Assembly: GCA_963771355.1 (NCBI GenBank)
Contig: CAVYTA010000006.1
Span: 64,001-128,000 of the forward strand
Length of the DNA stretch: 64,000 nt
Direction: 5' to 3'
Origin: an uncultured Candidatus Rokubacteria bacterium
GTDB lineage: Bacteria > Methylomirabilota > Methylomirabilia > Rokubacteriales > CSP1-6
Shown here: positions 23,627 through 50,155 of the stretch, one piece after another
Layout of the letters: every line of letters begins with the position of its first letter
Position numbering within the stretch: position 1 is the first letter of the stretch
The notes under the pieces: model-generated
Database searches by the model: none
Seen by the model: only the letters and a program-made list of their open reading frames with translations
Told to the model about the DNA's origin: nothing
Program-made: the position numbers and the translations under genes

Positions 23627-24091
23627 ATGCGCGCCTCGCGTTCCGGCCACCGCTCGGCGGAGGCCCAGCGTCTCCTCGACCTGCTGAACGCTCTCGGCAG
23701 CACGACCTTTCGCCAGCTCCTCTGGCAGCGCGCATCGGAGCTGGACCTCACCTACGCCCAGTCGCAGGTCCTCTTCTATGTGGGCGAGCATGCCGCCTGT
23801 CACATGGGCGACGTGGCCAAGGCATTCGGCGTCACCCTGCCCGCCGTCACCCACATCATCGACCGGCTGGAGCAGAAGCAGTTCGTGGTCCGCGGCGATC
23901 ACCCCGTCGACCGCCGCGTGTACGTGCTCGAGCTGACCCGCCAGGGCAAGGCGTTGGTGCAGGAGCTCCACGGCATGCAGATGCGCGGTCTGGAGAAAGT
24001 GCTGGCGCGAATGTCCGCCGATGATCGCAACCGCGCGGTCAAGGGCCTCGAGGCCCTGGTGGAGGCGGCGACGGACGCCGCGAAGGCATGA
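23627..24091 (+). CDS. MarR family regulator
   Basis: LTYAQSQVL, VTHIIDRLEQK, DRRVYVLELT. Confidence 0.9.
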   Translation: MRASRSGHRSAEAQRLLDLLNALGSTTFRQLLWQRASELDLTYAQSQVLFYVGEHAACHMGDVAKAFGVTLPAVTHIIDRLEQKQFVVRGDHPVDRRVYVLELTRQGKALVQELHGMQMRGLEKVLARMSADDRNRAVKGLEALVEAATDAAKA

Positions 24092-25365
24092 AGCGCGTGG
24101 TCGCCGCCCTCGCCGTCCTCGCCCCCGCCCTCGCCGTCGGTGCCTGCTCCGATCGCGGGGGCGCGGCGACGGGGCCGCCGGCACCGCCGGCCGTTCCCGT
24201 CGGCGTGGCCGCCGTGGAGCAGAAGATGGTGCCGCTCCAGGAGACGGCGGTGGGTAACGTACAGGCGTATGCCACGGTGGGCGTCAAGTCGCAGATCGCC
24301 GGCCAGATCGTGCAGGTGCACTTCACCGAGGGGCGCGACGTCAAGCGCGGGGAGCTTCTGTTCACGATCGATCCCCGGCCCCCGGAGGCGGCGCTGCGGC
24401 AGAGCGAGGCCAATGTCGCCAAGGACGTGGCGCAGCTTCGTCAGGCCGAGGCAGCGCTCGCGCAGCGACACGCGGAGGTGACGCAGGCGCTGGCGAACCT
24501 CGAGCGCGACCTCGCCCAGATGGAGAATGCCCGCGTCCAGGAGCAGCGCTATCGCGCCCTGATGGAGAGGGAGCTGATCGCCCGCGAGCAATACGACCAG
24601 CTCCGGACGATCTTCGCCGCGCTCCAGGCGACGGTGCAGGCGTCCCGGGCCGCGGTGGAAAACGCTCGGGCCTCCGCGCGCGCGGCGGAGGCGGCGGTGG
24701 AGAACGCGCGGGCGGCCATCAAGGCGAACGAGGCGATGGTGGACGTGGCGCAGCTGCAGCTCGCCTACACGACCATCCGCGCCCCCATGGACGGCCGCAC
24801 CGGCAACCTCCTCGCCCAGGCCGGCAACGTGCTGAAGTCCAACGAGGACAACCCGTTGGTGGTCATCGCCCAGGTGCACCCGATCTACGTGTCGTTCTCC
24901 GTCCCCGAGCAGCACCTCACCGCGATCAAGAAGTACCAGGCCGGGGGCGGCCTCAAGGTCGAGGCCGCGATCGACGGCGGGCAACGCCGCGCCGCCGGCG
25001 CCCTGACCTTCATCAACAACACCGTGGATCCGACCACCGGCACCATCCAGCTCAAGGCGACCTTCCCCAACACTGACGACCTGCTGTGGCCCGGCCAGTT
25101 CGTCGACGTGTCGCTGACGCTCACCGCCGAGAACGCGGTCGTGGTGCCGGCCCAGGCGGTGCAGGCCGGCCAGCAGGGACCGTTCGTCTTCGTGGTGAAG
25201 CCGGACCTGACCGTCGAGTCGCGCCGCGTGAAGGTGGGCCGGCGACTGCCGCGCGAGCTGGTGATCGACGAGGGCCTCACCGCCGGCGAGCGCGTGGTGA
25301 CCGACGGGCAGCTCCGGCTCGTCCCCGGCGCGCGGGTGGAGATCAAGCCGCCGAGGCCGTCATGA
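24088..25365 (+). CDS. RND periplasmic adaptor (MdtA-like lipoprotein)
   Basis: VGAC lipobox, TIRAPMDGRTG, VDPTTGTI, LWPGQFV. Confidence 0.9.
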   Translation: MKRVVAALAVLAPALAVGACSDRGGAATGPPAPPAVPVGVAAVEQKMVPLQETAVGNVQAYATVGVKSQIAGQIVQVHFTEGRDVKRGELLFTIDPRPPEAALRQSEANVAKDVAQLRQAEAALAQRHAEVTQALANLERDLAQMENARVQEQRYRALMERELIAREQYDQLRTIFAALQATVQASRAAVENARASARAAEAAVENARAAIKANEAMVDVAQLQLAYTTIRAPMDGRTGNLLAQAGNVLKSNEDNPLVVIAQVHPIYVSFSVPEQHLTAIKKYQAGGGLKVEAAIDGGQRRAAGALTFINNTVDPTTGTIQLKATFPNTDDLLWPGQFVDVSLTLTAENAVVVPAQAVQAGQQGPFVFVVKPDLTVESRRVKVGRRLPRELVIDEGLTAGERVVTDGQLRLVPGARVEIKPPRPS

Positions 25366-28300
25366 GTCCGGCCCTGTTCATCCGCCGCCCGGTCCTCACC
25401 ACGCTCTTGATGGCGGCCATCCTCATCTTCGGATTGATGGCCTACCGCCTGCTGCCCGTGAACGACCTGCCCAACGTGGACTTCCCCACCATCCAGGTGT
25501 CGGCGGCGCTCCCCGGCGCCAGCCCCGAGACAATGGCCTCCGCGGTGGCCACCGTGCTCGAGCGCCAGTTCACGACGATCGCCGGCATCGATTCGATGAC
25601 CTCGACCAGCGCCCTCGGGCTCACCCAGATCACCATCCAGTTCACGCTCAGCCGCGACATCGACGCCGCCGCCCAGGACGTGCAGGCGGCGATCACCAAG
25701 TCGGCCCCTTTGCTGCCGGCCGGCATGCCGACCCCGCCGAGCTACCAGAAGGTCAACCCGGCGGACCAGCCCGTCATCTACCTGGCGCTCAGCTCGCCGA
25801 CGCTGCCGCTCTACACGGTGGATGAGTACGCGCAGACGAACCTCGCCCAGCGGATCTCGACCATCAGCGGGGTGGCGCAGGTCACGGTGTTCGGATCCCA
25901 GAAGTACGCGGTGCGTGTGCAGGTGGACCCGCGCGCGCTGGCCGCCCGGGGCATCGGCATCGACGAGGTCGAGCAGGCCATCGCCCGCGCCAACGTCAAC
26001 AAGCCGACGGGGACGCTCTACGGCGCCCACCAGGCGGTGAACGTGCAGGCGACCGGCCAGCTTCTGGACGCTGCCGCCTACCGGCCGCTCGTCGTCGCCT
26101 ATCGCAGCGGCTCGCCGGTGCGGCTGGAAGAGATCGGCCGCGTGATCGACGGCGTCCAGACCGACAAGGTGGCGAGCTGGTTCAATGACGAGCGCGCGGT
26201 CGTCCTCGCCGTCCAGCGTCAGCCGGGCACGAACACCATCGAGGTGGTCGACGCCATCCGGACCCTCTTGCCCGTCTTCCGGCAGCAGCTCCCGGCCTCG
26301 GTGAGCCTCAACGTCGTGTATGACCGATCGGCCGCCATCCGGGAGTCCGTGCACGACGTGCAGTTCACCCTGCTCCTCACCGTCGCCCTCGTGGTCATGG
26401 TGATCTTCGTGTTCTTGCGCAACGTGTCGGCCACCATCATCCCGAGCCTGGCGGTGCCGTTGTCCATCGTCGGCACCTTCGCCGTCATGTACCTCCTCGG
26501 CTACACGATCGACATCATCTCGCTGATGGCCCTCACGCTCTGCGTCGGGTTCGTCGTCGACGACGCCGTCGTCATGCTCGAGAACATCGTGCGCCACATG
26601 GAGGCGGGGGAGAGCCGCATGGAGGCGGCGCTCAAGGGCGCCCGGGAGATCGGGTTCACGATCCTGTCCATGACGGTGTCGCTGGCGGCGGTGTTCATCC
26701 CCGTGCTGTTCATGGGCGGCGTGGTCGGGCGGCTGCTCCACGAGTTCGCCGTGGTCATCATGGCCGCCGTCCTCGTGTCCGGTCTCGTGTCGCTGACGCT
26801 CACGCCCATGCTCTGCAGCCGCTTCCTCCAGCCCCCGCACGGGGGAGGGAACCGGCTGTACCAGGCCTCCGAGCGGGTCTTCCAGGCGATCCTTCACGCG
26901 TACGACCATTCGCTGCAGTGGGTGCTACGGCACCGGCGGACGACGATGGCGGTGCTCGCCTTCACCTTCGTGCTGACGGCGTATCTGTTCGTCATCATCC
27001 CCAAGGGCTTCATCCCGAACGAGGACACCGGCTCGATCTTCGCTTTCACCGAGGCCGCCCAGGACATCTCCTTCGACTCGATGGTGGAGCACCAGCGCGC
27101 GGTGGCCGACGTCGTGCGCCAGAGTCCGCACGTGGAGCAGTTCATGTCCTTCATCGGAGCGAGCGGCTCGAACGTGGTGCCCAACACCGGCCGCATCTTC
27201 ATCCGGCTCAAGCCGCGATCCCAGCGCCCGCCGGCGGAAGCGGTGATCCAGGAGTTGCGGCCCAAGCTGGCGGCGGTGCCGGGCATGCGCGTCTACCCGC
27301 AGGTGTTGCCCACGATCCGGATCGGTGGGCAGCTGACGAAGGCGGTCTACCAGTACACCCTGCAGGACGCCGACCTCCAGGAGCTGTACCACTGGGCCCC
27401 CCTCCTCTACGACCGGCTCCGGGCGCTGCCCGACCTGCAGGATGTCAACACCGATCTGCAGATCACGAGCCCCCAGGTCGTCGTCAACATCGACCGCGAC
27501 AAGGCCGCCGCTCTCGGCGTGTCTGTGGACCAGATCGAGAGCGCCCTCGGCAGCGCGTACGGCTCCAAGCAGGTGTCGACGGTCTATACGCCGTCCAACC
27601 AGTACTGGGTCATCCTCGAGCTGGATCCGCAGTACAAGCAGGACGCGACGGCCCTGGCGCGCCTTTACGTGCGCTCGAGCACCGGCCGCCTGGTCCCGCT
27701 GGGGGCGGTGGCCACGCTCACCCCTGGGCTGGGACCCCTCACGGTCACCCACCTGGGCCAGCTGCCGTCCGTCACGATCTCCTTCAACCCGAAGCCCGGC
27801 GTGTCCCTCAGCGACGCCGTCGCGCAGGTCGAGCGCGTGCAGCAGGAGCTGCGGCCCCCGGCCACGCTCGGCACCACCTTTCAGGGCACCGCCCAGGCCT
27901 TCCAGGCCTCGCTGCAAGGGCAAGGCATGCTGCTGCTCGTCACCATCCTCGTCATCTACCTCGTCCTCGGCGTGCTCTACGAGAGCTTCATTCACCCCCT
28001 GACGATCCTCTCCGGGCTGCCCTCGGCGGGCGCGGGGGCCCTCCTCACGCTGCTGCTGTTCGGGATGGAGCTGAACGTCTACGGGTTCGTCGGCATGATC
28101 ATGCTGGTGGGCATCGTGAAGAAGAACGCGATCATGATGATCGACTTCGCGCTGGAGGCGGAGCGGGCGGGGGCCACGCCGGCGGCGGCGATCTACCAGG
28201 GCTGCCTGCTGCGGTTCCGTCCGATCATGATGACCACCATGGCAGCCCTTTTCGGCACCCTTCCCATCGCGCTCGGCCTCGGCGCAGGCGCCGAGGCGCG

Positions 28301-28511
28301 CCGGCCGCTCGGGCTCGCCGTGGTGGGTGGGCTGCTGGTCTCGCAGCTCCTGACCCTCTACATCACGCCCGTGCTCTACCTCTACATGGAGGCGGCGCAG
28401 AAGAACCTGGCTGCGCACCCGCTCTCCCGCATCTTCTTCTGGCGCCGCTGGGCGCGTCGCCCGCCGCCGTCCGCCACGCCCGCCGTCCACTCCTCCGCGC
28501 CTCGGCCGTGA
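25362..28511 (+). CDS. RND efflux permease (MdtB/C-like)
   Basis: FIRRPV, LPNVDFPTI, GFVVDDAVVMLEN, GIVKKNAIMMIDF, RFRPIMMTT. Confidence 0.93.
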   Translation: MSPALFIRRPVLTTLLMAAILIFGLMAYRLLPVNDLPNVDFPTIQVSAALPGASPETMASAVATVLERQFTTIAGIDSMTSTSALGLTQITIQFTLSRDIDAAAQDVQAAITKSAPLLPAGMPTPPSYQKVNPADQPVIYLALSSPTLPLYTVDEYAQTNLAQRISTISGVAQVTVFGSQKYAVRVQVDPRALAARGIGIDEVEQAIARANVNKPTGTLYGAHQAVNVQATGQLLDAAAYRPLVVAYRSGSPVRLEEIGRVIDGVQTDKVASWFNDERAVVLAVQRQPGTNTIEVVDAIRTLLPVFRQQLPASVSLNVVYDRSAAIRESVHDVQFTLLLTVALVVMVIFVFLRNVSATIIPSLAVPLSIVGTFAVMYLLGYTIDIISLMALTLCVGFVVDDAVVMLENIVRHMEAGESRMEAALKGAREIGFTILSMTVSLAAVFIPVLFMGGVVGRLLHEFAVVIMAAVLVSGLVSLTLTPMLCSRFLQPPHGGGNRLYQASERVFQAILHAYDHSLQWVLRHRRTTMAVLAFTFVLTAYLFVIIPKGFIPNEDTGSIFAFTEAAQDISFDSMVEHQRAVADVVRQSPHVEQFMSFIGASGSNVVPNTGRIFIRLKPRSQRPPAEAVIQELRPKLAAVPGMRVYPQVLPTIRIGGQLTKAVYQYTLQDADLQELYHWAPLLYDRLRALPDLQDVNTDLQITSPQVVVNIDRDKAAALGVSVDQIESALGSAYGSKQVSTVYTPSNQYWVILELDPQYKQDATALARLYVRSSTGRLVPLGAVATLTPGLGPLTVTHLGQLPSVTISFNPKPGVSLSDAVAQVERVQQELRPPATLGTTFQGTAQAFQASLQGQGMLLLVTILVIYLVLGVLYESFIHPLTILSGLPSAGAGALLTLLLFGMELNVYGFVGMIMLVGIVKKNAIMMIDFALEAERAGATPAAAIYQGCLLRFRPIMMTTMAALFGTLPIALGLGAGAEARRPLGLAVVGGLLVSQLLTLYITPVLYLYMEAAQKNLAAHPLSRIFFWRRWARRPPPSATPAVHSSAPRP

Positions 28512-28604
28512 GCGCGGTGGCGGGGCACTATGATCGGGGGGCGCGCGTTCGTGTGAGGCCGTGCTATGGTGTGGCGGACTTCAATCCTTGTGAGGAGGTT
28601 CGGC

Positions 28605-28826
28605 ATGCCCGTCAAGATCAGCATCCGGCCCAACGGCCCGTATCTGGTGGAAGGCGAAGTCGAGCTACTGGACGTCAACGGGAACAAGATTGATACGAGC
28701 GCGCGGGGGCCAAAGTTCGCGCTGTGCCGGTGCGGCGCGTCGGTTACCAAGCCGTTCTGTGACGGCACCCATAGCAAGATCGGTTTCCAGGCCGCGGAGG
28801 CCGCCGTCGCCCAGGAGAAAAAGTAG
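28605..28826 (+). CDS. CDGSH iron-sulfur domain protein
   Basis: NGPY, LCRCGAS..KPFCDGTH; SD GAGGAGG. Confidence 0.92.
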   Translation: MPVKISIRPNGPYLVEGEVELLDVNGNKIDTSARGPKFALCRCGASVTKPFCDGTHSKIGFQAAEAAVAQEKK

Positions 28827-28924
28827 ACCACCGGAACTCGGACTAGGCGAGGCGAGCGCTGCTCCGCCTGATCGTGCGGGTGGGAAGCGCAACCCAGCAT
28901 GACATGCAGACGAGCGCGTCGCCG

Positions 28925-29047
28925 TCACCGCGCGCGCGTCGTCCGGTTGGCCCGGCCCCGCTTCCAGCAGATGGGGCAGGGGCCCGCCCCCCGGAACTTG
29001 TGTCCGCGGCTACAGGTCTTCCAACCGCCTGCCTTCCCTGGCGCCAT
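28925..29047 (-). CDS. 40-aa putative zinc-ribbon microprotein
   Basis: [35 protein letters not shown]. Confidence 0.55.
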
Positions 29048-29210
29048 GGCGTCCTCCGGCGGTTCGATCATGAGGGGTCCGACGGCGGAGATCAACCCGG
29101 CCCGGCACCCGTCGTGCGGGCGAGCGCGAATTCGCGGGGATACGATCCGTCCAACCCACGTCCGGGGCTTACCGGTCACGCGAAGCGCTCGCCGTTGTAG
29201 GATCTGATCC

Positions 29211-30434
29211 ATGTCACCCTTTGTCGCCGTCCGGCGCATGTTGTCAGGGTTGTCGCTCATTGCGGCGGCCCTGATACCGCTCGGCTGCCAGGAGAGCCCG
29301 GCGCCCGCGGCGGCCCCGCCATCCGAAGCCCAGCGTCAGCCTCCCCGACCGGTCCGCGTCGCCCCGGCGATGGAGGCGATGGTCGACCGAAGAGTCAGTG
29401 CCACCGGCACGCTCGCGGCCGATGAGCAGGTCGTGCTCGGCACCAAGGTCGCCGGCCGGATCGGCGAGCTGCTCGTGGACCTCGGCAGCCGGGTCCGCCG
29501 CGACCAGACGGTCGCTCGCCTCGACCCCACCGACGCGCAGCTCCGCGTCGACCAGGCGGTGGCGGCCCTGCAGCAGGCGCGCGCCCGGCTCGGACTCTCG
29601 CCGGGAGGTACCGACGACCGCGTCGACCCCGAGCAAACCTCGCTCGTGCGCCAGGCGCGGGCGGTGCTGGACGAGGCGCGGCTCACCAAGGAGCGGACGG
29701 ATCGGCTCTGGAGGCAGGAGCTGATTGCCCAGGCGCAGGTCGACACGGCGGTGTCGGCGCTGGGAGTGGCCGAGGCCCGCTATCAGGACGCCATCGAGGA
29801 GGTCCGGAACCGTCAGGCCGTGCTCCTCCAGCGGCGCTCCGAGCTGGAGCTGGCGCGGCAGCAGCGCGCGGACACCCTGGTCAACTCGCCGATCGAGGGC
29901 GCGGTGAGCGAGCGCCGGGCCTCGGTCGGGGAGTACCTCGCCGCGGGGGCGCCGGTGGTCACGCTCGTCAAGCTGCACCCGCTGCGGCTGCGCCTCGCCG
30001 TGCCCGAGCGCGACGCGACGTCGGTGCGGGTGGGTCAGCCGGTAGTCGTGACCGTCGAGGGCGTGGCCGGCGAACACCATGGGCGCGTCGCGCGCATCTC
30101 CCCCGCCATCAGTGAGCAGAACCGCACCCTCCTGGTGGAGGCCGAGGTGCCCAACGAGGGCGCCGTGCTCCGACCCGGCGCCTTCGCCAAGGCCGACATC
30201 GTCCTCGCGGGCGACCTCCGCGTGGTCACCGTGCCGGCGACCGCGATCGTTACCTTCGCGGGGGTGGAGAAGGTGCTCACGGTGGACAAGGGACGCGCGG
30301 TGGAGGTCCGCGTGACCACCGGGCGCCGCCTGGGCGACCGCGTGGAGATCGTCACCGGCATCAAGGCGGGCACCCCGGTGGTCGGTCAGCCCGGTAGTCT
30401 GACCGAGGGGCAACCGGTGACGGTCCAGCCCTAG
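29211..30434 (+). CDS. RND periplasmic adaptor (lipoprotein)
   Basis: LGC lipobox, [19 protein letters not shown]. Confidence 0.9.
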
Positions 30435-30436
30435 CC

Positions 30437-33400
30437 ATGCAGAAGCTCGCCGAGGTCTGCATCCGCCGGCCGGTGTTTGCGGCCATGCTCGTGCTCTCCC
30501 TCGTCGTGGTCGGCGCCGCCTCGTACGCCCGCCTCGGCGTGGACCGCTTCCCGGCCGTGGACGTTCCCACCGTGAGCGTCCGGACCGAGCTCAGCGGCGC
30601 CTCCGCCGAGGAGGTGGAGAGCCAGGTCACGCGCGAGATCGAGCAGGTGGTCAACACCGTGCAGGGCATCCGCGAGCTGCGCTCGATCTCCGGCCCGGGC
30701 CAGTCCATCGTCATCGTGGAGTTCGAGCTGCGCCGGAACATCGACGTGGCGGCGCAGGACGTCCGCGAGAAAGTTGCCCTCGCGATCCGGAATCTCCCGC
30801 GTGACGTGAAAGCGCCCATCATCGCGAAGTTCGACAACGACCAGGCGCCTGCCCTCACGGTGGCGGTGGCCGGCGACCGGCCGCTGCGCGAGCTGACCGA
30901 GCTGGCCGACAAGGTCGTCAAGATCCAGCTGGAGCGCTCGTTCGGGGTGGGCGAGGTGCGGCTCGTGGGCGGCCTCAACCGCGCGATCAACGTGTGGGTG
31001 GAGGCGGATCGGCTCGCCGCCTACCAGCTGCCCATCACCGCGGTTCGCGACGCCCTCGTCCGCCAGAACGCGGACATGCCGGGCGGCAATGTCACCGCGG
31101 GGCTCCGCGAGTCCTCGCTCCGCACCATCGGGCGCGTCGCCGACCCGAAGGCCTTCGACGACGTGGTCATCGCCACCGTCAATGGCGCCCCCGTCCGGAT
31201 ACGCGACGTGGGCCGGGCGGAGGACGGGACCGCCGAGCAGCGCTCGGTGGCCCGCCTCAACGGCGTGCCCAGCGTGATCCTCGAGGTGCGGCGGCAGTCG
31301 GGCGAGAACACGGTGGCGGTCATCGAATCCGCCAAGGCCAGCCTCGCCCGTCTCGCCGGGCAGATTCCCCCCGACGTGCGCCTGGAGGTGATCCGTGACC
31401 AGTCGCGCTACATCTACGCCGCGCTGCACGAGATCAAGATCCACCTGATCCTGGGCTCGATCCTCGCCTCCCTGGTGGTGCTGCTGTTCATGCGGAATTG
31501 GCAGTCCACCATCATCGCGGCGGTGGCCATCCCGTGCTCGGTGATCTCGGCGTTCGGCACCATGTGGGCGCTCGGCTTCACGCTCAACAGCGTGACCATG
31601 CTGGCGCTGGTGCTCATGGTCGGCATCGTCATCGACGACGCCATCGTCGTGCTCGAGAACGTCTTCCGCTTCGTCGAGGAGAAGCGGATGACGCCGTTCG
31701 AGGCGGCGAAGGCCGCCACTGCCGATATCGGTCTCGCGGTCATGGCCACCACCTTCAGCCTGGTGGTGATCTTCCTCCCCGTCTCCTTCATGTCGAGCGT
31801 CTCCGGCCGCTTCCTCTACCAGTTCGGCGTGACGGCGGCGGTGTCGGTGCTGGTCAGCCTCCTGGTGTCCTTCACGCTCACGCCCATGATGAGCGCGCGG
31901 ATGATTCGCACCGGCGGGGCGGGTGGCGCCCACGGTCACGCGGAGGCCGCCTCCCGCCGTGGGTTCTACTCCTGGCTCGACCGTGGCTACGCCTTCACCC
32001 TGCGCAAGTCCATGCGGTATCGCTGGGCGGTGGTGGCGATCTCGCTCCTGACCATCGCCGCGACCTGGCCCATCTACGGCTGGGTCAAGCAGGAGTACAC
32101 GCCCACCGACGTGGACGAGAGCGAGTTCGAGGCGTCCATCAACGGTCCCGAGGGCATCTCGATGCCCGCGATGGACGAGGCCGTCCGGACCATCGCCGAC
32201 GAGGTTCGCTCGGTGCCGGGGGTGCGGAACGTCCTCATCACCGCGGGCGGGGGCTTCCTCGGGCGCATCAGCCAGGGGAACGTGTACGTGCGCATCGCGC
32301 CCCACGACGACCGGACGTTCGGCCTGGCCCGGCTCTGGCGCGAGACGCTCAAGGGTACTCCGCTGGCGGCGTTCCGGGGCAACTACAGCCAGCGCGAGGT
32401 CATGCAGCAGGTGCGCCTCAAGCTCCGGAAGCTCCGCGACTTCCGCATCCTCGTGCGCAATATTCCCGGCTTCAATATCGGCGGCGGCAGCTTCGACATC
32501 GACTTCGTCCTGCGCGGCCCCGACCTGGAGGCGCTGTCGCGCTACGCGGAAGAGCTCCGCACGCGGGCCATCGCCCTGGGCGGTATCGCCGACCCCGACA
32601 CCACGCTGCGGCTCGACCGGCCCGAGCTGCGCGTCAGCATCGACCGCGAGCGCGCGGGGGACCTGCGCGTGGACACCGAGCAGATCGCCACCGCGCTGCG
32701 CCTCATGGTGGGGGGCGACACGGAAGTGTCACGGTTCCGCGACCCGGCCAGCAACGAGGACTACTACGTGCAGCTTCGGCTCAGCGAGAAGGACCGGGGC
32801 GACCTCGGCACCATCTCGCACCTCTTCGTCTCCCGTCAGGGCGGTGAAACCGGGCCGGGCAGCCTGGTGCGCCTGGACAACCTGGTGCAGATCGCCCCGG
32901 GGTACACGGCCTCCCGCATCGACCGCTCCGATCGGCAACGCGAGGTCCGGCTCCGCGCGGTGGTGCTCCCCGGCTTCGGCCAGGCCGACCGCATCGCCGC
33001 ACTGCGCGGCGCGGTGGCGGAGATGCGGCTCCCGCCCGGCTACACCACCGCCATTTCCGGGCGCGCGCGCGAGCTGGAGCGGACGTTCACCGAGTTCCTC
33101 TGGGTCTTCCTCCTCTCCGTCATCTTCATGTACATGATCCTCGCCGCCCAGTTCGAGAGCCTGATTCATCCCCTGACGATCCTGCTCTCTCTGCCGCTGT
33201 CGGTGCCCTTCGCCCTGCTCTCGCTCTGGTACACCGGCAATACCCTGAACCTCTACTCCGCGCTCGGCATCCTCGTCCTCTTCGGCGTGGTGAAGAAGAA
33301 TGCCATCCTGCAGATCGACCACATGAACAGCCTGCGTGCCGGGGGTATGAGCCGCGAGGACGCCATCATGCAGGGCAACCGCGACCGACTGCGGCCCATC

Positions 33401-33664
33401 CTGATGACCACCCTCGCCCTCGTGGGCGGCATGCTGCCGCTCTGGGCCGGGACGGGTCCGGGCGCCGAAGAGCGCCGGGCCATCGCCGTGGTCGTAGTGG
33501 GCGGCCAGACCCTCTCGCTCCTCCTGACCCTTCTCGTGACGCCGGTCGCCTACTCGATCTTCGAAGACCTCTCGCGCGCGCTTGGCCGCGTGCCGCAATT
33601 CTCCCGCCGGGGACCCGCTCTCCGCCTTCGTCGCTGGCGCCGAGGTACCCCCGAAAGGTCCTGA
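30437..33664 (+). CDS. RND efflux permease (AcrB/HAE1 family)
   Basis: CIRRPVF, GIVIDDAIVVLEN, GVVKKNAIL, RLRPILMTT. Confidence 0.93.
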   Translation: MQKLAEVCIRRPVFAAMLVLSLVVVGAASYARLGVDRFPAVDVPTVSVRTELSGASAEEVESQVTREIEQVVNTVQGIRELRSISGPGQSIVIVEFELRRNIDVAAQDVREKVALAIRNLPRDVKAPIIAKFDNDQAPALTVAVAGDRPLRELTELADKVVKIQLERSFGVGEVRLVGGLNRAINVWVEADRLAAYQLPITAVRDALVRQNADMPGGNVTAGLRESSLRTIGRVADPKAFDDVVIATVNGAPVRIRDVGRAEDGTAEQRSVARLNGVPSVILEVRRQSGENTVAVIESAKASLARLAGQIPPDVRLEVIRDQSRYIYAALHEIKIHLILGSILASLVVLLFMRNWQSTIIAAVAIPCSVISAFGTMWALGFTLNSVTMLALVLMVGIVIDDAIVVLENVFRFVEEKRMTPFEAAKAATADIGLAVMATTFSLVVIFLPVSFMSSVSGRFLYQFGVTAAVSVLVSLLVSFTLTPMMSARMIRTGGAGGAHGHAEAASRRGFYSWLDRGYAFTLRKSMRYRWAVVAISLLTIAATWPIYGWVKQEYTPTDVDESEFEASINGPEGISMPAMDEAVRTIADEVRSVPGVRNVLITAGGGFLGRISQGNVYVRIAPHDDRTFGLARLWRETLKGTPLAAFRGNYSQREVMQQVRLKLRKLRDFRILVRNIPGFNIGGGSFDIDFVLRGPDLEALSRYAEELRTRAIALGGIADPDTTLRLDRPELRVSIDRERAGDLRVDTEQIATALRLMVGGDTEVSRFRDPASNEDYYVQLRLSEKDRGDLGTISHLFVSRQGGETGPGSLVRLDNLVQIAPGYTASRIDRSDRQREVRLRAVVLPGFGQADRIAALRGAVAEMRLPPGYTTAISGRARELERTFTEFLWVFLLSVIFMYMILAAQFESLIHPLTILLSLPLSVPFALLSLWYTGNTLNLYSALGILVLFGVVKKNAILQIDHMNSLRAGGMSREDAIMQGNRDRLRPILMTTLALVGGMLPLWAGTGPGAEERRAIAVVVVGGQTLSLLLTLLVTPVAYSIFEDLSRALGRVPQFSRRGPALRLRRWRRGTPERS

Positions 33665-35755: not shown

Positions 35756-36688
35756 TCACCTCGACGGCCGATCGGCGGATCGCGCCCGTTCGGCCCAGCG
35801 GAGCAGATCGGCCCGTGGCCAGACGAGATAGTATGCGATGGGCAGGTATTCGCCCGCTTCGTACAGGCGCCGCCGCGTGTCCGACCTGGCCAGGGCATCG
35901 CGCACCGCCGAGGGATGCGACCCGTATCGGAAGCCCCTGGCCCCGCGCTCCAATCGCCGCGAACGGAGGTAGGCGAGCCGCGGGCTGATCGTCTCGATCC
36001 GGGGATCGTAGAACCAGGCAGTACCGAAGACCCCCTTGACCTCGGGGTTGCGGACCAGCAGCTCTGCTATGCGAAGGTAGCTCCGGTCCCAGCTCTCCGG
36101 ACTGAACTCCGTCAGACGGCGCGGGTCGAGGTGCAGGGAATAGAACGGTCGGAAGCCGCGCGTCCTGACCAGGAAGAAATATACGCCTCGGAGGAACTGG
36201 AGCGCGCCTCCTCGGCAGAGCAGACTCCGTGGCACGCCCGCGCCCACCTCGAGTAGCTCCGCTCCGCACGGGAGCAAGATGAACCGACACAGCCCCAGAT
36301 CTTTCAGGAACAAGTCGTTGGAGAAGTGATAGAAGTCGTCCGGCTGGTGCCCGGTGTCCCGCTGGATCCGCCCGATCTCTTCACGGAGGAGCTCGACGAC
36401 AGATTCCGGTATCGCCTGCCCGGCGACCCTCGTCTCGAACGAAGCGGCCAGGTGCAAGAGGAGAAGCTTGTGGTACTTGCCGAGCGTGGACCGGCCCGCC
36501 CGCCGGGTGATGTCCAGGGAGGCGTCGCGGGTGGTGTTGCTGATCCAGCCGTATCCCCGATACCGGAGCGCTGCCTCGCCGGGCTCGAGATATTGCTCAA
36601 GCGGATGGCGCGTCAAGATCTCTTTGTCGGCGGCGCGCACCTGCGCTCGCAGTGCATCTTGGAGGGGGCCGAGGCCAGGCAAGGTCAC
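35756..36688 (-). CDS. Hypothetical protein, possibly GNAT-like acyltransferase
   Basis: 310-aa ORF; LHL, GVFGTAWFYDP; GTGA coupling to the upstream ORF. Confidence 0.6.
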   Translation of the reverse strand: MTLPGLGPLQDALRAQVRAADKEILTRHPLEQYLEPGEAALRYRGYGWISNTTRDASLDITRRAGRSTLGKYHKLLLLHLAASFETRVAGQAIPESVVELLREEIGRIQRDTGHQPDDFYHFSNDLFLKDLGLCRFILLPCGAELLEVGAGVPRSLLCRGGALQFLRGVYFFLVRTRGFRPFYSLHLDPRRLTEFSPESWDRSYLRIAELLVRNPEVKGVFGTAWFYDPRIETISPRLAYLRSRRLERGARGFRYGSHPSAVRDALARSDTRRRLYEAGEYLPIAYYLVWPRADLLRWAERARSADRPSR

Positions 36689-36903
36689 CGGGAATCCCGC
36701 CTCGCCTGCTGCCTTTGACCGCTCGCGCGCGTGTGGGCCTGGATTGCCTTGGAGGCCGTTTTCTCGAACTGCCGCTTGGCGACATTCTCGACGGCTGCAC
36801 TCCCGATCGCCTTGCGCTTGGTGGATCGGCGGGCGGCGGCGGCGGCCGCCGCGGTTTCTTGATTCGCCGAGGTCACACGCGACGACGCCTTTTTGCTCTT
36901 CAT
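36685..36903 (-). CDS. Small highly basic hypothetical protein (72 aa)
   Basis: SD GGAGGGAG, upstream TATAGT, K/R/A-rich. Confidence 0.6.
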   Translation of the reverse strand: MKSKKASSRVTSANQETAAAAAAARRSTKRKAIGSAAVENVAKRQFEKTASKAIQAHTRASGQRQQARRDSR

Positions 36904-36927: not shown

Positions 36928-38313
36928 CTATAGCCGAAGCGGAGGATCTTCAGCACCGATGTCGTGGTGGTCGTGGGCGGCAATCTTGAAGAAACGCTCG
37001 GCGTGGCTCGGGTGGACGGAGAGCTGGGTCGCGAGATCGCTCGCGGTGGCGCCGTTCCGGATCGCCAACGTCGCCATCTGGATGAGCTCGGCGCCCGCAT
37101 AGCTGATCATCTGGGCCCCCAGCAGCCGTTCCTGGGCGGCGTCGAACACCAGCTTGAGATACCCGTCGTCTTCCCCGGTGGCGCGGCCGTTCGAGGCCCC
37201 CCGTAGATCCTGGGTCGCGACGTGGCACTTCACGCCGCTGGCCGTTGCCGCCCGGTGGGTCAGGCCGACCCTGGCCACTTCCGGGGTGGTGAAGACGCTC
37301 TGAGGCACGAGCGTGGTGTCGGCGATCAGCTGGTCGCCCAGCAGCGCGTTGTGCGCCGCGAGACGGCCCTCGTACGCGGCCACCGGCGTGAGCTGCGCGT
37401 TGCCGGCGGCATCCCCGGCCGCGTAGATGTGGGCCACCGAGGTGCGGAGATAGGGCGTGACCGCGAGGCCCAGGCGCCCCCTCTCCAGCCCCAGGTGCTG
37501 AGCGCCCAGTGTTTCGGGCCGCCACCGGCGCCCGATGGCCACGCACGCCTGGTCCGCCGCCACCGCGTGAGGCTCGCCGTCTCTCGTGAACCGCGCGGTC
37601 ACGTCGCCTCGTCTTCCCGAGAAGCTCGTGAGCGTGGCGCCGAGGTGAAAGGTGACGCCGCGGCTCTCGAAGATCCTCCTGAGGTATCCGGCCACGTCGG
37701 GGTCGAACCCGGGGAGGATCTCGCCCTCCTGGCCGACGACCACGACCTCGGCTCCGAAGTCGCTGAACGCGCCCGCCATCTCCAGACCGATGACACCCGT
37801 CCCGACGATGACGAGACGTTGCGGGAAGACGGGCAGGAACAGGAGCTCGTCCGAGGTGATCGCCGCTTCGATGCCTGGCACCGCCGGAGCGACGGGGATG
37901 GATCCCGCGGCGATGATGATCCGGTCGCTCCGCAGGGTCGCGTCGTTCACCACGATGGTGTGCGGATCGGCGAACCTCGCTTCGCCGAGGATGATCTCGG
38001 CTCCCGGCCGCGCGAGCGCCGCCGGCAGCGGCTGGAACTCCTTGACGATGTCGTGCTGCCGGCGGATGACCGTCGGCCAGTCCAGGGCGATGGGGCCCGC
38101 CGTCGTGCCGAAGCGTGCTGCATCCTTCGTGATCCGGTGAATCCGCCCAGACCTTACCAAGGCCTTTTTCGGGATTCACCCCCAGTTGACGCACGTTCCG
38201 CCGAGCGGTCCCCGATCGACGAGAGCGACCCGCGCTGCGAGTGTAGCGGCCGCTTTCAATGCATTGATGCCCGCGGCCCCGCCTCCGATGATGACCAGGT
38301 CATAGCGATCCAA
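36928..38313 (-). CDS. Flavoprotein disulfide reductase (GR/LPD/MerA family), probable selenoprotein (in-frame TGA 38176-38178)
   Basis: GGGAGG SD + TTG; YDLVIIGGGAAG, GGTCVNWG-TGA-IPKK all in one frame; GTGVIGLE, IYAAGD, VHPSHAE. Confidence 0.85.
38138..38178 (-). promoter_or_regulatory. Putative bacterial SECIS hairpin
   Basis: UGAAUCC/GGAUUCA lower stem, AGGCCUU/AAGGUCU upper stem, GGU loop starting 18 nt after UGA. Confidence 0.65.
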
Positions 38314-38394
38314 GGCGATCCTCCCTCATGAGTTCGCCCGACGTTCGTCCGACCGTACGCGTCCCGATCGTAACGCGTCCGAGGCGCGCTCCAA

Positions 38395-45681: not shown

Positions 45682-46545
45682 ATGCCGACCAAGAATTCCA
45701 GCCTTGCCCACGTCCTCGCGACGCTCCGTGCCCAGCTGGAGATCGTCCGCGCCAGCGAGGCCGGCACCCGGGCGGGCCGGGACCCCGAGGACCTGCACAA
45801 GATGCGGGTCGCGGTCCGCCGTCTCCGGGCCATTCTCCGGGCGAGCCGGCCGCTGTTCGACGCGAAGTGGGTGAAGGGGCTTCGGAGCGAGCTGGACTGG
45901 CTCGGGACCGCGCTGGGAGTGGCGCGGGACCTCGACGTGCTTCGGGGATACCTGGGCTCGGAGCTCGCCTCCCTCGAGCGGGCCGAGCAGAAGGCGGGCC
46001 AGAGGCTGCTCCGTCGGCTCGATGCCGACCGCGCCCGGGCCAGGGGGGCCCTGCGTGAGGTCCTCGCTGGCCCGCGATACGCCAAGCTCCTGGCCCGCCT
46101 GAAGGCGTCTTTCGCCGCCCCCCCCGTCAGCTCAATGGAGGTCTCGCTTCCCGGCAGTGCCGCCGCCGAGTTCAAGAAGCTTCGCCGGGCGGTCAAGGGG
46201 CTCCCCGGCCACCCGAGTGCCGACGACCTCCACGAGGTCCGGATCAAGGTGAAGCGGGCGCGGTACGCCGCCGAGCTGGTGGAGGCCGCGGGTAGTCGGG
46301 GCACACGGTTCCTGGATCAGGCGAAGACGGTTCAAGACATTCTTGGAGAACACCAGGACGCCGTGGTACTCGAAGAGTATCTACACGAAGTCATCGGCAG
46401 CCGAGAGGCCAAGCATGCGCTCGAGCAGCAGCTTCTCAAACGGCAGCGCAAGCGTCGAAAGAAGACGCGCGCCGCGTTTTTCGAGGAGTGGCCGAGGCTC
46501 GAGCGCCGTGGCCGGAAGGCATGGAGCGCTGCTCCCGTGCCATAG
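45682..46545 (+). CDS. CHAD domain (polyphosphate-binding) protein
   Basis: LHKMRVAVRRLR, RDLDV, LHEVRIKVKRARY, QDILGEHQD. Confidence 0.92.
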   Translation: MPTKNSSLAHVLATLRAQLEIVRASEAGTRAGRDPEDLHKMRVAVRRLRAILRASRPLFDAKWVKGLRSELDWLGTALGVARDLDVLRGYLGSELASLERAEQKAGQRLLRRLDADRARARGALREVLAGPRYAKLLARLKASFAAPPVSSMEVSLPGSAAAEFKKLRRAVKGLPGHPSADDLHEVRIKVKRARYAAELVEAAGSRGTRFLDQAKTVQDILGEHQDAVVLEEYLHEVIGSREAKHALEQQLLKRQRKRRKKTRAAFFEEWPRLERRGRKAWSAAPVP

Positions 46546-46551
46546 CGCCTC

Positions 46552-47049
46552 GTGAACCTCCTGCTGATTCGCCACGCCCCCGCCGTTCCCAACGGAAACG
46601 GCGGCACCCGTGATCACGACCGTCCTCTCACGCGAAAAGGCCGGACCCGCTTCCGGCAAGCGGCCCGAGGGCTGGCCCGGATCGCGGGGCGACCTGACGT
46701 CCTGCTGACGAGCCCTCTCGCCCGTGCCCGCGCAACTGCTGACATCGCCGCGGCCGCCTTCAAGCGGGTGACCCCGAAGATCGAGCCCGCGCTCGGGCAG
46801 GACGACGTCGACGTGCTGGTGACCGCGCTGAAGAAGTACGGTCCTGACGCGACGGTTGCGCTGGTCGGGCACGAGCCCACGCTCTCAGGCCTCCTGGCTC
46901 ACCTGCTCGGCATGCACCAGGGGGACGACCGCTTCGCCTTCAAGAAAGGCGGCGCGGCCCTGGTCCACCTGCCGGACGGACCCTCGATCCCCGGTCAGCT
47001 CAGGTGGTTTGTAAAGCCGCGAATTTTAAGGTCTCTAGGCTCCCACTAG
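46552..47049 (+). CDS. sixA: SixA-like phosphohistidine phosphatase
   Basis: LIRHA, RPLT, SPLARA..T, VGHEP, FKKGG. Confidence 0.85.
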   Translation: MNLLLIRHAPAVPNGNGGTRDHDRPLTRKGRTRFRQAARGLARIAGRPDVLLTSPLARARATADIAAAAFKRVTPKIEPALGQDDVDVLVTALKKYGPDATVALVGHEPTLSGLLAHLLGMHQGDDRFAFKKGGAALVHLPDGPSIPGQLRWFVKPRILRSLGSH

Positions 47050-47115
47050 CTCAGCCCGCCTGGCCGTCGGGACCCATGCTACTCTGAGGTCCTTTCCTTG
47101 TGAGGTAGTCAGCCT

Positions 47116-48090
47116 GTGGCACTAACAAACGGAGCCGGCTTGCGCGGTAGCCCCACCTCGGACCTGGTCGCCATCGTCGATCTGGGCTCAACCGCCGTCC
47201 GATTTCTTCTCGCGCAGATCCGCCCGAGCTCGGGGTTCCGCATCCTCGCCCAGGAGCGGGTGCCGACCCGGCTCGGAGGTGGCGCGCCCGGGACACTGCC
47301 CAGACGGGCCATCGCCAAGACCCTGCGAGCCGTGCATCGCTTCTTCGCCCGCTACTCGCCCCATGGGCAAGGGCCGCGCGTCGTCGCCATCGCGACCTCG
47401 GCGGTCCGGGATGCACGCAATCCCGAGCGACTCCTCGATCCCCTGCGGCGGAACGAGGGCATCGAGGTGCAGGTGCTCAGCGGGCGGGAGGAGGCACGCC
47501 TGGGGGTCATGGCGGCCCTCGAAAGCCTACCCTTCACCAATGGCGTCGTGGCGGACCTGGGGGGAGCGAGCCTGCAGCTCAGTCGGGTGCGCCACCGCCG
47601 CGTGGTCTCGAGCGCCAGCCTGCCGCTGGGGTCGGTCCGGACCACCCGTAACTTCCTGAAACACGATCCACCCACCCCGCGAGAGGTGCGCGAGCTCCGC
47701 ACCGAGATCCGGGAGCGGCTCCGGACCGCCATGCCGCCCGCCAATCACGGCGAGATCCTGGTCGGCATGGGGGGAACGGTTCGCACCCTTGCCAGCATGC
47801 ACCTGCGCGCCAACCCGGGGGAGCGCAAGCACCGGCACGGGCTCGTGCTGCAGCAGTCGGATGTCACCGCCATTCGCGAGCGGCTGGAGGCCCTGTCCTT
47901 TCGGGGGCGGCGCAAGATCCGGGGACTGAAGGCCGAGCGCGCCGACATCATTCTGGCCGGCGCCATGGTCATCGAGGATGTGATGGTCAGCGGAGGGTAT
48001 CTCCGTCTCGTGGTCTGCACCCGGGGAGTGCGGGACGGGTTGCTTCTCCACGAGGCCACCAGGAAAAGGAACTCACATGGGCTCCGATAA
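47116..48090 (+). CDS. ppx: Ppx/GppA exopolyphosphatase
   Basis: VDLGS, ATSAVRDA, LSGREEA, DLGGAS, RADII, GVRDG. Confidence 0.88.
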   Translation: MALTNGAGLRGSPTSDLVAIVDLGSTAVRFLLAQIRPSSGFRILAQERVPTRLGGGAPGTLPRRAIAKTLRAVHRFFARYSPHGQGPRVVAIATSAVRDARNPERLLDPLRRNEGIEVQVLSGREEARLGVMAALESLPFTNGVVADLGGASLQLSRVRHRRVVSSASLPLGSVRTTRNFLKHDPPTPREVRELRTEIRERLRTAMPPANHGEILVGMGGTVRTLASMHLRANPGERKHRHGLVLQQSDVTAIRERLEALSFRGRRKIRGLKAERADIILAGAMVIEDVMVSGGYLRLVVCTRGVRDGLLLHEATRKRNSHGLR

Positions 48091-50155
48091 ATTCGTGAAC
48101 CGGGAACTGTCGTGGCTGGAATTCAACCGGCGTGTCCTCGAAGAGGCGCAGGACCCGAGCGTGCCGCTCCTGGAGCGACTCAAGTTCCTCTCGATCTTCA
48201 GCTCGAACCTGGACGAGTTTTTCATGGTCCGCGTGGCCGCGCTGAAGCGGCGCATCCATGCCGGGGAGCAGACCTCGACCCCCGACGGGCTCACCCCGCT
48301 GCAGACGATGGTGGGGGTGTCGGCCCGGGTGCACGAGCTCGTCGACGCCCAGCACCGCTCATTCCTCCAGGATATCCAGCCGCTCCTCGCCCGCGAGGGA
48401 ATCCTGCTCCTGCGTCCAAAGGAGATCACCGAGGAGCAGCGGCGATTCCTTGAGGACTATTTCCGCCGCATGCTCCTCCCGGTGGTGACCCCGCTCGCGG
48501 TGGACCCGGGGCATCCCTTCCCGTATCTCGGCAACCGCTCGCTGTGCCTGGTGGCGTCGATGCGCCCGTCGGCGCCGTCCGGCTTCCCGCACAGCCAGCT
48601 CTCGATCATCCACATCCCGAGCCAGGCGCTGCCGCGATTCATCGCGCTCCCCGACCCGGACGGCAAGCGCGCGTTCATGCTCCTCGAGGACGTGATTCGT
48701 CTGCACCTGCCGACCATCTACAACGGCTACGACATCGTCTCGAGCCACGCGATTCGAGTCACCCGAGACGCCGATCTCCCCGACCTGCCGACCCGGCCCT
48801 CGGACCTCCTGAGCGGCATCGAGCGGAGCCTGCGCGAGCGTCGGCTGGGAGACGCGGTGCGCCTGCAGCACGACGGCGATCTCCCGCCGGAGATCCTGGC
48901 CCTGCTGCTCGATGAGCTGGAGCTGCAGGCCGACGACGTCTACGAGGGCGCGGGCTTCGCCGCTTTCTCGGATCTCCTGCAGCTCTACTCCGCGCTCGAG
49001 ATCCCGCGTCTCAAGGACCCGCCGCGACCGCCGCACCCGGTGGCCGCGCTGGAGAGCACCTCCGATATCTGGGGCGCCATCCGGGAGCGCGACATCCTCG
49101 TGCACCATCCGTATCAGAGCTTCGACAGCGTCACCCGGTTCGTGCAGGAGGCCTCCAGCGATCCGAAGGTGCTGGCCATCAAGATGACGCTCTACCGGGT
49201 CAGTCCCGCGTCGCCGATCGCGCACGCCTTGCAGACCGCGGTGGAGAACGGCAAGGAGGTGGCGGTGCTCGTCGAGCTGCAGGCCCGATTCGACGAGGAG
49301 GCGAACATCCGCTGGGCCCGCGCGCTCGAGGAAGTGGGCGCCCACGTGGTGTACGGCTTCCCCGGATTCAAGACGCACTGCAAGGCGTGTCTGGTCGTCC
49401 GGCAGGAGTCGGACGGCATCCGGCGGTACTGCCACCTCGCCACCGGGAACTACAATGTCCGGACCGCGGGGGTCTATAGCGACGTGGGGCTCTTCACCGG
49501 CCGGCGCCAGTTCGGCGAGGACCTGACCCAGCTCTTCAACCTCCTCACCGGCTACACGCGCCCGACCGGGTTCCACCACCTCATCCTCGCGCCCACCACG
49601 ATGCGTGACGCGTTCGTGGAACGGATCCGCCGCGAGGCGGAGCATGCCCGGGCGGGCCGCCCGGCGCGCATCATCGCCAAGATGAACGCCCTGGTCGACC
49701 GGAGCCTGATCGAGGAGCTGTACGCGGCGAGCGCGGCCGGGGTGCAGATCGATCTTCTCGTCCGCGGCATCTGCTGCCTGCGCCCGGAGGTCCCGAATCT
49801 CTCGGAGAACATCCGCGTCGTCTCGATCGTGGACCGGTATCTCGAGCACTCGCGCATCTACTGCTTCGAGAACGCCGGGCAGCCTGAGTACCTGCTGGCC
49901 TCGGCGGACTGGATGCCCCGCAACCTCGACCGGCGGGTGGAGGTAGCCTTCCCAGTCCTGGACCCAGCCCTGCACCGGCAGATCCGCGAGATCCTCGAGA
50001 CCCAGCTCGCCGACACGGCGAAGGCGCGCCGCATTCTCCCCGACGGTACCTCGGAGCGCGTCCGGTCGAACGGCCGCCCCGCCCTGCGCTCCCAGGAGCG
50101 TCTCTACGAGCTGATCGGGAACGGAGGCACCGGCGCGGAGGCCCCCGAGCGCTGA
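48077..50155 (+). CDS. ppk1: Polyphosphate kinase 1
   Basis: NRELSWLEFN, SNLDEFFMVR, HHPY, ARFDEE, TGNYN, SADWMPRN. Confidence 0.96.
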   Translation: MGSDKFVNRELSWLEFNRRVLEEAQDPSVPLLERLKFLSIFSSNLDEFFMVRVAALKRRIHAGEQTSTPDGLTPLQTMVGVSARVHELVDAQHRSFLQDIQPLLAREGILLLRPKEITEEQRRFLEDYFRRMLLPVVTPLAVDPGHPFPYLGNRSLCLVASMRPSAPSGFPHSQLSIIHIPSQALPRFIALPDPDGKRAFMLLEDVIRLHLPTIYNGYDIVSSHAIRVTRDADLPDLPTRPSDLLSGIERSLRERRLGDAVRLQHDGDLPPEILALLLDELELQADDVYEGAGFAAFSDLLQLYSALEIPRLKDPPRPPHPVAALESTSDIWGAIRERDILVHHPYQSFDSVTRFVQEASSDPKVLAIKMTLYRVSPASPIAHALQTAVENGKEVAVLVELQARFDEEANIRWARALEEVGAHVVYGFPGFKTHCKACLVVRQESDGIRRYCHLATGNYNVRTAGVYSDVGLFTGRRQFGEDLTQLFNLLTGYTRPTGFHHLILAPTTMRDAFVERIRREAEHARAGRPARIIAKMNALVDRSLIEELYAASAAGVQIDLLVRGICCLRPEVPNLSENIRVVSIVDRYLEHSRIYCFENAGQPEYLLASADWMPRNLDRRVEVAFPVLDPALHRQIREILETQLADTAKARRILPDGTSERVRSNGRPALRSQERLYELIGNGGTGAEAPER

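Follow-up and report, generated by a model that had tools for sequence, protein, structure and literature searches.

Locus and gene features

The window analysed here is a stretch of 64,000 nucleotides from contig CAVYTA010000006.1 of an uncultured Candidatus Rokubacteria bacterium. Its minus strand carries a reading frame of 461 codons (38313 to 36928) that begins with TTG, terminates with TAG at 36930-36928 and, as read from the sequence, contains one in-frame TGA at 38178-38176. This TGA is codon 46 and stands in the context GGTCVNWG*IPKKALVR, where class I reductases have the second Cys of their motif. The original prediction had placed the start at TTG 38313 behind the Shine-Dalgarno sequence GGGAGG, with the frame open through to a 410-aa ORF, and had assigned the TGA to the second motif Cys; the frame was confirmed from the sequence, and the assignment by alignment with mercuric reductase (MerA) and glutathione reductase (GR). 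The features of the locus are as follows.

36928..38313, minus strand: full coding sequence of a class I pyridine nucleotide-disulfide oxidoreductase, 461 aa if the TGA is read as selenocysteine (Sec)
36928..38160, minus strand: truncated 410-aa ORF reported by gene callers, in the same frame as the full gene
38320..38325, minus strand: Shine-Dalgarno-like GGGAGG in the sequence, 6 nt 5' of the TTG start at 38313
38191..38193, minus strand: Cys41 (TGC), conserved in 60 of 60 Sec forms and predicted to act as the interchange thiol of the CxxxxU centre
38176..38178, minus strand: in-frame TGA, codon 46, predicted flavin-facing selenocysteine; TGA in 18 and TGC in 6 of 24 relatives
38149..38165, minus strand: upper stem-loop of the predicted SECIS element, with a 7-bp stem and a GGU loop at 38158-38156, 17 nt past the UGA
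38138..38178, minus strand: whole predicted hairpin, including a lower stem that pairs the UGA and is absent from some relatives
37222..37227, minus strand: Cys363-His364 in the first strand of the interface domain, a candidate tail-Cys partner or metal ligand
36997..37014, minus strand: His434-Pro-Ser-x-x-Glu439, invariant in 66 of 66 sequences and predicted to form an acid-base dyad like that of GR and dihydrolipoamide dehydrogenase (LPD)
36955..36975, minus strand: His-rich tail, H447-G453, with Gly453 in the window and Cys at 453 in relatives

The 410-aa ORF starts at the TTG at 38160 (codon 52), a rare Leu codon within the hairpin, and database record P0002 and 56 of the 120 best database matches begin at the same point. 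Because all 120 of these best-matching proteins begin at residue 52 or beyond, and none has the CxxxxC motif, the gene is truncated by annotation; a split gene or a pseudogene call had been predicted, and truncation is what was seen. Full-length relatives also start behind a Shine-Dalgarno sequence, 42 to 48 codons 5' of the TGA, and purifying selection acts on codons 2-45 (pN/pS 0.25, from 59 non-independent pairs with the window).

The TGA is identical in bridging contigs from runs X1 and X15 and is kept in a contig from run X10, of which the sole difference from the window lies at 38146. As it is thus unchanged, and replaced by neither TGC nor TGT, in contigs of three studies (X1, X15 and X10; X16 and X17 were left out of this count), it is no assembly slip. 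RNA contigs of runs X15, X16 and X17 span the gene, although contigs per se do not show transcription; a search of run X19 gave no match to it, and no promoter-like site was found for it. In contigs of three other runs, 10 bases are missing just 5' of the Shine-Dalgarno site, at about 38330.

Distribution and conservation of the in-frame TGA

The relatives are Rokubacteria/Methylomirabilia. A protein search of 151 genomes of the class (E <=1e-80) retrieved 24 loci in 23 genomes, 18 with TGA at codon 46, down to approximately 60 % identity, and 6 with TGC, all from genus g7, so that homologs are not uniformly Cys proteins at this column. A DNA motif requiring the TGA was present in 34 of 251 genomes of the phylum, all of one family and covering 23 genera, while the reversed-pattern control gave 0, and the motif itself occurred in 0 of 251 Chloroflexota control genomes. 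The gene is patchily distributed: in the genus to which the window belongs, the TGA motif was found in 0 of the 7 other genomes. The family is isolated, full-length matches beyond it reaching at most 39 % identity in a set of 1.84 billion cluster representatives. A record titled Acidoferrum (L050) was considered as a sign of spread to Acidobacteria and rejected, its match coordinates being identical to those of G103, a member of the window's own family.

The Cys counterparts in Rokubacteria are approximately 53 % identical. Those of genus g7 (L039-L042, L044 and L045) are without the hairpin, Cys363 and the His/Cys tail, and in L041 Ser substitutes for Cys41. The Cys form is not explained by loss of the decoding machinery, because selB was found in 5 of the 6 Cys-form host genomes. 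TGA is also the terminator of these same reductase genes in many relatives, and UGA is therefore no general sense codon.

Predicted SECIS hairpin

Both pairings named in the original prediction, UGAAUCC/GGAUUCA and AGGCCUU-GGU-AAGGUCU, were recovered by RNAfold, at -15.7 kcal/mol for the whole hairpin and -7.1 for the upper stem segment alone; the distance of 18 nt given earlier is refined, in that the loop begins 17 nt past the UGA and its first base is at +18. The consensus bacterial SECIS criteria, as given in the available part of PMC13188914, are a loop of 3-9 nt with G first, a stem of 4-16 bp, a spacing of 16-37 nt and a minimum free energy <=-7.5, and the window falls within all four with a 3-nt GGU loop, 7 bp, 17 nt and -15.7 kcal/mol for the whole hairpin. 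Its fold energy is no better than that of shuffled sequences (z -1.19 to +0.16).

Conservation of the hairpin was examined in 43 distinct 33-nt TGA windows, derived from 111 loci that included duplicates, one of the 43 coming from the distant locus L176. With the loop position fixed (at least 5 pairs, loop starting at G, UGA+18), a position picked after the data had been seen, the stem is present in 43 of 43 Sec windows and in 0 of 6 Cys windows, and is expected under synonymous recoding in 0.8 % on average. A position-free test of 18 single loci of the Rokubacterial family (clade A, below) gave p values of 0.03-0.45, mostly non-significant, and since the fixed position was chosen post hoc, the weight of the hairpin lies in the position common to the sequences and in the choice of codons. 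Among 67 genes, TTG is used in the stem by 61, GTA by 55 and AGG by 61, compared with 2.9 %, 1.4 % and 7.7 %, respectively, elsewhere in the same genes. The hairpin occurs in two registers, with a 3-nt or a 4-nt loop, and the latter shows a compensatory change of a C-G to a U-A pair at the cost of an Arg-to-Lys substitution. Among the 10-codon windows of the gene, synonymous divergence is at its minimum in that starting at codon 51.

Selenocysteine machinery of the host genomes

The genome from which the window is taken (G000, 99.8 % complete) was searched for the decoding genes that the original prediction called for, and selA, selB and selD were found above their cut-offs together with a tRNA-Sec of 69 bits. 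The tRNA-Sec, selA and selB genes are clustered on contig C7 and selD lies on C4; a single tRNA with a TCA anticodon is present, and it scores as tRNA-Sec. The genome also has three matches to the alpha subunit of formate dehydrogenase (FdhA-type) with an in-frame TGA and hairpins (C7:2068-5047, C6:1158243-1161351 and C4:311117-312229), two of which break into two frames further 3', perhaps through assembly frameshifts.

In 33 other carrier genomes, selB was found in 27, and one of the 6 selB-negative carriers has a tRNA-Sec as well as part of selA, cut off where a contig ends. In the remaining five (77-100 % complete) neither selA nor selB was found, nor, with only 150 candidates scored in each genome, any tRNA-Sec in the four of them that were searched. 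In each of the five (G004, G013, G029, G219 and G220) the SelD gene contains its own in-frame TGA, and we infer that the selCAB contig is missing from these assemblies. The SelD match of G000 has no internal stop.

Predicted protein structure and motifs

The predicted structure of the 461-aa protein is confident (pLDDT 90.3), and in Foldseek comparisons its fold matches LPD, MerA and GR with TM scores of approximately 0.9 at approximately 30 % identity. The FAD and NAD(P)H Rossmann motifs, a CxxxxC-type centre and an interface domain with the His-Glu pair are all present, and all catalytic motifs are retained in the family. None of the best 25 of 42 NCBIfam families was matched at its cut-off. 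In alignments with MerA and glutathione amide reductase, Cys41 falls in the column of their first motif Cys, and the MerA structure 5x1y has Tyr in the His434 column. The original prediction held that the second motif Cys of such enzymes faces the flavin, which agrees with the high-molecular-weight thioredoxin reductase TXNRD1, where Cys64, the second motif Cys, forms a charge-transfer complex with FAD according to the available text of PMC10840350.

For the coenzyme the sequence gives mixed signs, with Gly or Ala at 194, where the second NAD strand ends, Arg or Gln at 195 (about half Arg) and an acidic residue at 196. GxGxxG is present in 56 of 60 Sec forms and, together with the acid at 196, resembles glutathione amide reductase, which is in the PDB with NAD. 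Of 45 outgroup proteins, 34 have the LPD-type acid at 194, which the Sec family lacks.

Two further Cys residues distinguish the Sec forms. All 60 full-length Sec forms and all 120 database fragments have Cys363, which is shared by 1 of 45 outgroup proteins and by none of the 6 Cys forms. For the tail Cys at 453, the counts are 57 of the 60 full-length Sec forms, 110 of the 120 fragments and 0 of the 6 Cys forms. The window protein has Gly453, identically in contigs of runs X1, X4, X9 and X15. The earlier description of the tail as lacking the MerA Cys-Cys stands, but its HDHHD sequence is a reduced form, since 57 of the 60 Sec relatives have Cys where the window has Gly453. In genus g7, Sec and the two Cys were lost jointly, which counts as one event. 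His364, His447 and His450 are altered together in one subclade of 6 sequences (L133, L152, L170, L180, L244 and L259), in which both Cys and Sec are kept. The tail is of low confidence in the AlphaFold monomer models both of the window protein and of a relative that has the tail Cys; given the result for this relative, a Cys363-Cys453 pair is put forward as a hypothesis.

Host thiols and gene neighbourhood

Among 20 genomes of the family, carriers and non-carriers together, gshB above its cut-off and GCS2, the two models by which glutathione synthesis was searched, were each found in 0 of 20; bshC, for bacillithiol synthesis, was likewise found in 0 of 20. The mshC and senB models gave sub-cut-off matches only in 5 of 5 genomes, and egtB was above its cut-off in 1 of 5, this not being G000. 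The G000 genome has two further LPD-like genes with intact motifs.

The neighbourhood scan covered 96 ORFs at 24 loci and the window; these ORFs were picked by a crude gene finder, and some true frames escaped it. No conserved operon was found and the neighbours vary across the loci scanned; there were no mer genes, no genes for lipoyl-dependent complexes, and no recurrent regulator or rclBC-like genes. In the closest subclade, a Fe/Mn superoxide dismutase gene lies close upstream at three scanned loci (L048, L051 and L120). A stand-alone redox-maintenance enzyme is favoured because of the absence of gshB and GCS2 matches, the two other LPD-like genes, the varied neighbours and the nearby superoxide dismutase. 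Elsewhere in the window, a basic ORF of approximately 72 aa and an overlapping 310-aa ORF, with no Pfam match, lie 3' of the gene (35756-36903, minus strand), two tandem HlyD and AcrB-type efflux pairs are found at 24088-33664 (plus strand), and a polyphosphate cluster of CHAD, histidine phosphatase, Ppx and Ppk at 45682-50155 (plus strand).

TGA at the same column in other clades

A motif scan of metagenomes gave at least 120 matching stretches, 80 of which were classified. Among these 80 listed matches, 53 belong to the Rokubacterial family (clade A), 13 to clade B, 5 to clade C and 1 is L176, while 8 are scattered. Three of the clade A matches stop early. Clade B is lipoamide/mycothione-reductase-like (best model NF004947) and has TGA at the same column (L168:1271-2647, minus strand; L175, L156, L147, L149, L179, L185 and 6 more); its many Cys relatives are 72-83 % identical and include records labelled Nitrospirota. 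NCBI record P0122 is a truncated clade B form. The hairpin of clade B is unlike that of clade A: in 12 of the 13 loci its loop lies at index 29 (p 0.000-0.025). In the PRK06370-like clade C the TGA again stands at this column, and the stems have 6-8 pairs in 5 of 5 loci (p 0.005-0.125); all five (L140, L141, L165, L174 and L193) are interrupted by contig ends. L176 (556-1905, plus strand) is a 45 % GC reductase gene adjoining a BCCT transporter, its product being 32 % identical to the window protein; the TGA is followed by the same 17-nt stem-loop as in the window, and the gene lies outside clade A in the trees. The 8 scattered matches have stems of at most 4 pairs, which indicates that chance nonsense changes or other codes do occur at this column. 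L182 and L127 are near-identical low-GC glutathione-reductase-like genes with TGA at the column and no hairpin, and our guess is that their source could be a eukaryote reading UGA as Cys.

In a tree of 108 rows, clades A, B and C each had 100 % SH-aLRT support and were separate from one another; the g7 Cys forms were nested within A (87 %), and Cys forms were also nested within B, where the Cys rows had been chosen as the nearest to one Sec row. A joint clade of A, B, C and L176, a grouping named after the first tree, was rejected by the AU test with 40 rows (p 0.035). A deep single origin of the three clades and L176 with many losses is possible.

Proposed function and alternative explanations

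It is highly likely, from the sequence data taken together, that codon 46 encodes selenocysteine and that this is a real selenoprotein gene, in which the TGA would be decoded by SelB acting on the hairpin just 3' of it. Sequencing error or decay to a pseudogene, for which the 8 scattered hairpin-less matches among the 80 listed and the early stops in three clade A metagenome matches might be cited, has next to no probability and is refuted by the conservation data: the TGA recurs in 23 genera, down to approximately 60 % identity, in intact frames on independent contigs, with purifying selection on both sides of it and constraint on the hairpin. Variant tRNAs that insert Cys at UGA are known in a few bacteria, and a Sec-type tRNA charged with Cys, or another reading of UGA as a standard residue, would make this an ordinary sulfur enzyme. 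The five carriers with no detectable selA or selB suit such a reading, which is nonetheless very unlikely: the window genome has selA, selB, selD and a TCA-anticodon tRNA scoring as tRNA-Sec, all five of those carriers have the TGA-bearing SelD, and TGA terminates the same genes in many relatives.

The gene is best described as very likely encoding a selenium-containing flavin disulfide reductase with a Cys41-Sec46 centre beside FAD. From the chemistry of the family, NAD(P)H would reduce FAD, which would open the Cys-Se bond via Sec46 with formation of a selenolate-flavin charge-transfer state; Cys41 would then attack the disulfide of the substrate, the leaving thiol being protonated by His434-Glu439 from the partner subunit. 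As a tentative assignment, and the likeliest single role, the enzyme may serve stand-alone thiol recycling in oxidative-stress defence. It would reduce a non-glutathione disulfide, of a protein or of a small molecule, and most members would do so via Cys363 and Cys453, which would form a second thiol pair somewhat like the tail of the large thioredoxin reductases. The window copy, having lost Cys453, would act from the inner centre alone.

Three other roles were weighed for the same protein. As a metal handler, it would collect a soft metal through His364, His447, His450, Cys363 and Cys453 and pass it to the inner centre for reduction in the manner of MerA, which supplies both the best NCBIfam match (345.9 bits) and the best PDB sequence match (5x1y); the joint alteration of the three His in one 6-sequence subclade is what would be expected of the ligands of one site. 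That subclade nevertheless retains both Cys and Sec, the MerA cut-off of 454.45 is not reached, the Cys-Cys tail is absent, the His-Glu dyad stands where MerA has Tyr, and mer genes were found at none of the 96 neighbour ORFs scanned. A selenolate would, moreover, be expected to trap Hg or Au and not to release it, and a metal role is judged unlikely. In an equally unlikely role, the inner centre would itself reduce a small electrophile or oxidant, such as hypothiocyanite, products of hypohalous acids, quinones or polysulfides, as in RclA and Har, with Sec guarding against over-oxidation. This role draws on the intactness of the window copy despite its missing tail Cys, on the superoxide dismutase neighbour in the closest subclade, and on the use by RclA of the same two-Cys centre on HOSCN and the reduction of HOSCN by the mammalian Sec enzyme TXNRD, both given in the available text of PMC9335216; it leaves Cys363 and Cys453 unexplained, the scores with the models for RclA and Har, 205 and 201, fall short of the cut-offs of 740 and 650, and no recurrent regulator or rclBC-like neighbours were seen among the loci scanned. 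A divergent Sec-bearing LPD, serving as the E3 component of a lipoyl-dependent complex, is decidedly improbable. LPDs are among the top Foldseek matches, the nearest full-length clusters are often LPDs (6 of 8 scanned exceed the LPD cut-off), the His-Glu dyad is retained and the database fragments are labelled E3; against this, the protein scores 333.5 where the LPD cut-off is 408.8, it lacks the acid at 194 that 34 of 45 outgroup proteins have, it was placed outside the LPD-rich clade in both trees, lipoyl-complex genes were absent among the neighbours scanned, and the genome has two other LPD-like genes.

Thiol recycling by a selenoenzyme also allows a broader and more speculative picture, somewhat less secure than that role itself. 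Sec may have come to occupy the flavin-facing seat of the GR/LPD active site at least three times (in Rokubacteria, in a Nitrospirota-containing clade and in a PRK06370-like clade), each time with a hairpin; the Rokubacterial enzyme, with a Cys363/Cys453 relay, would be an inside-out counterpart of TXNRD and an example from nature of a selenolate-flavin enzyme, and it might do most of the thiol recycling in bacteria without glutathione.

Significance and comparison with known systems

Table 1 of a 2026 review lists 119 bacterial selenoprotein families (PMC13188914), and a CxxxxU class I reductase is absent from these 119; the nearest entries in that table are a CoA-disulfide reductase-like UGxP family and a sulfide-quinone reductase. 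No mention of such a reductase occurs in the available text of a 2022 review (PMC9312934) or of SelCysML (PMC13745706), in that of deep-Sep (PMC12013277) with its four supplements, or in that of BSepDB (PMC13326102), its family table aside. A full-text literature search for this family returned none, two stray matches proving unrelated; whether the family is new may also depend on the supplements to Haft and Tolstoy 2025 and to Deng et al. 2026. Deng et al. 2026, as cited in the available part of PMC13188914, reported 63 selenoprotein genes in a Methylomirabilota genome. The residue, the fold and the decoding system are known, and what is new against these lists is the very likely placement of Sec at the flavin-facing position, which seemingly recurs in other lineages. 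One family, and probably two more, would be added to the bacterial selenoproteome, and many records labelled as truncated E3 would be corrected. Natural Sec enzymes with close Cys counterparts would also make the gain of Sec over Cys testable at the flavin, where the charge-transfer band reports on it directly.

The chemistry of the disulfide reductase family is described in the available text of PMC9335216 and PMC8395237, and several of its members can be set beside the Rokubacterial enzyme. RclA and Har are likewise class I enzymes that work alone, their inner pair serving in defence against oxidants (PMC9335216, available text); they are Cys enzymes without Cys363 and the tail features, and their models score 205.5 against 740 (NF040477) and 200.8 against 650 (NF041853). 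GR, glutathione amide reductase and LPD share the fold (TM 0.86-0.91), the motifs and the His-Glu pair at approximately 30 % identity, and none of them is listed with Sec. In the alignment the acid at 196 matches that of glutathione amide reductase, whereas the glutathione reductase model gives 310.6 against a cut-off of 480, and the LPD model TIGR01350 gives 333.5 against 408.8, the acid that ends the second NAD strand of LPD being missing here. MerA is the best sequence match and has the same inner motif and a Cys-bearing C-terminal tail; it differs in its model score (TIGR02053, 345.9 against 454.45) and in that the Rokubacterial enzyme has His where MerA has Tyr, and no Cys-Cys. The selenoprotein listed as "putative mercuric reductase" is, in the available parts of PMC13188914 and PMC12013277, a small UxxU metal-binding protein and is other than the Rokubacterial enzyme.

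Two selenoenzymes come closest, the first of them an entry of Table 1 of PMC13188914. The CoA-disulfide reductase-like selenoprotein (TIGR03385, UGxP) is a bacterial flavoprotein of the same superfamily with a single-residue centre, whereas the Rokubacterial enzyme has CxxxxU-I-P, a Cys-Sec pair five apart, and the TIGR03385 model scores 83.5 against a cut-off of 578.8 and does not cover the N-terminus. The single redox residue of the CoA-disulfide reductase-like enzymes would be the structural equivalent of the flavin-facing Cys. TXNRD1 shares with the Rokubacterial family the class I fold, the inner CxxxxC-type centre at FAD, the His-Glu pair, a Cys-bearing C-terminal tail and the use of Sec, while the high-Mr thioredoxin reductase model TIGR01438 scores 182 against a cut-off of 475.85. 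In animal thioredoxin reductase, the best-studied selenoenzyme of this fold, selenium is on the tail (Cys497-Sec498 in TXNRD1) and the inner pair, Cys59/Cys64, is sulfur (PMC10840350, available text); in the Rokubacterial family, Sec is predicted at the equivalent of Cys64, and the tail has one Cys and not a neighbouring redox pair.
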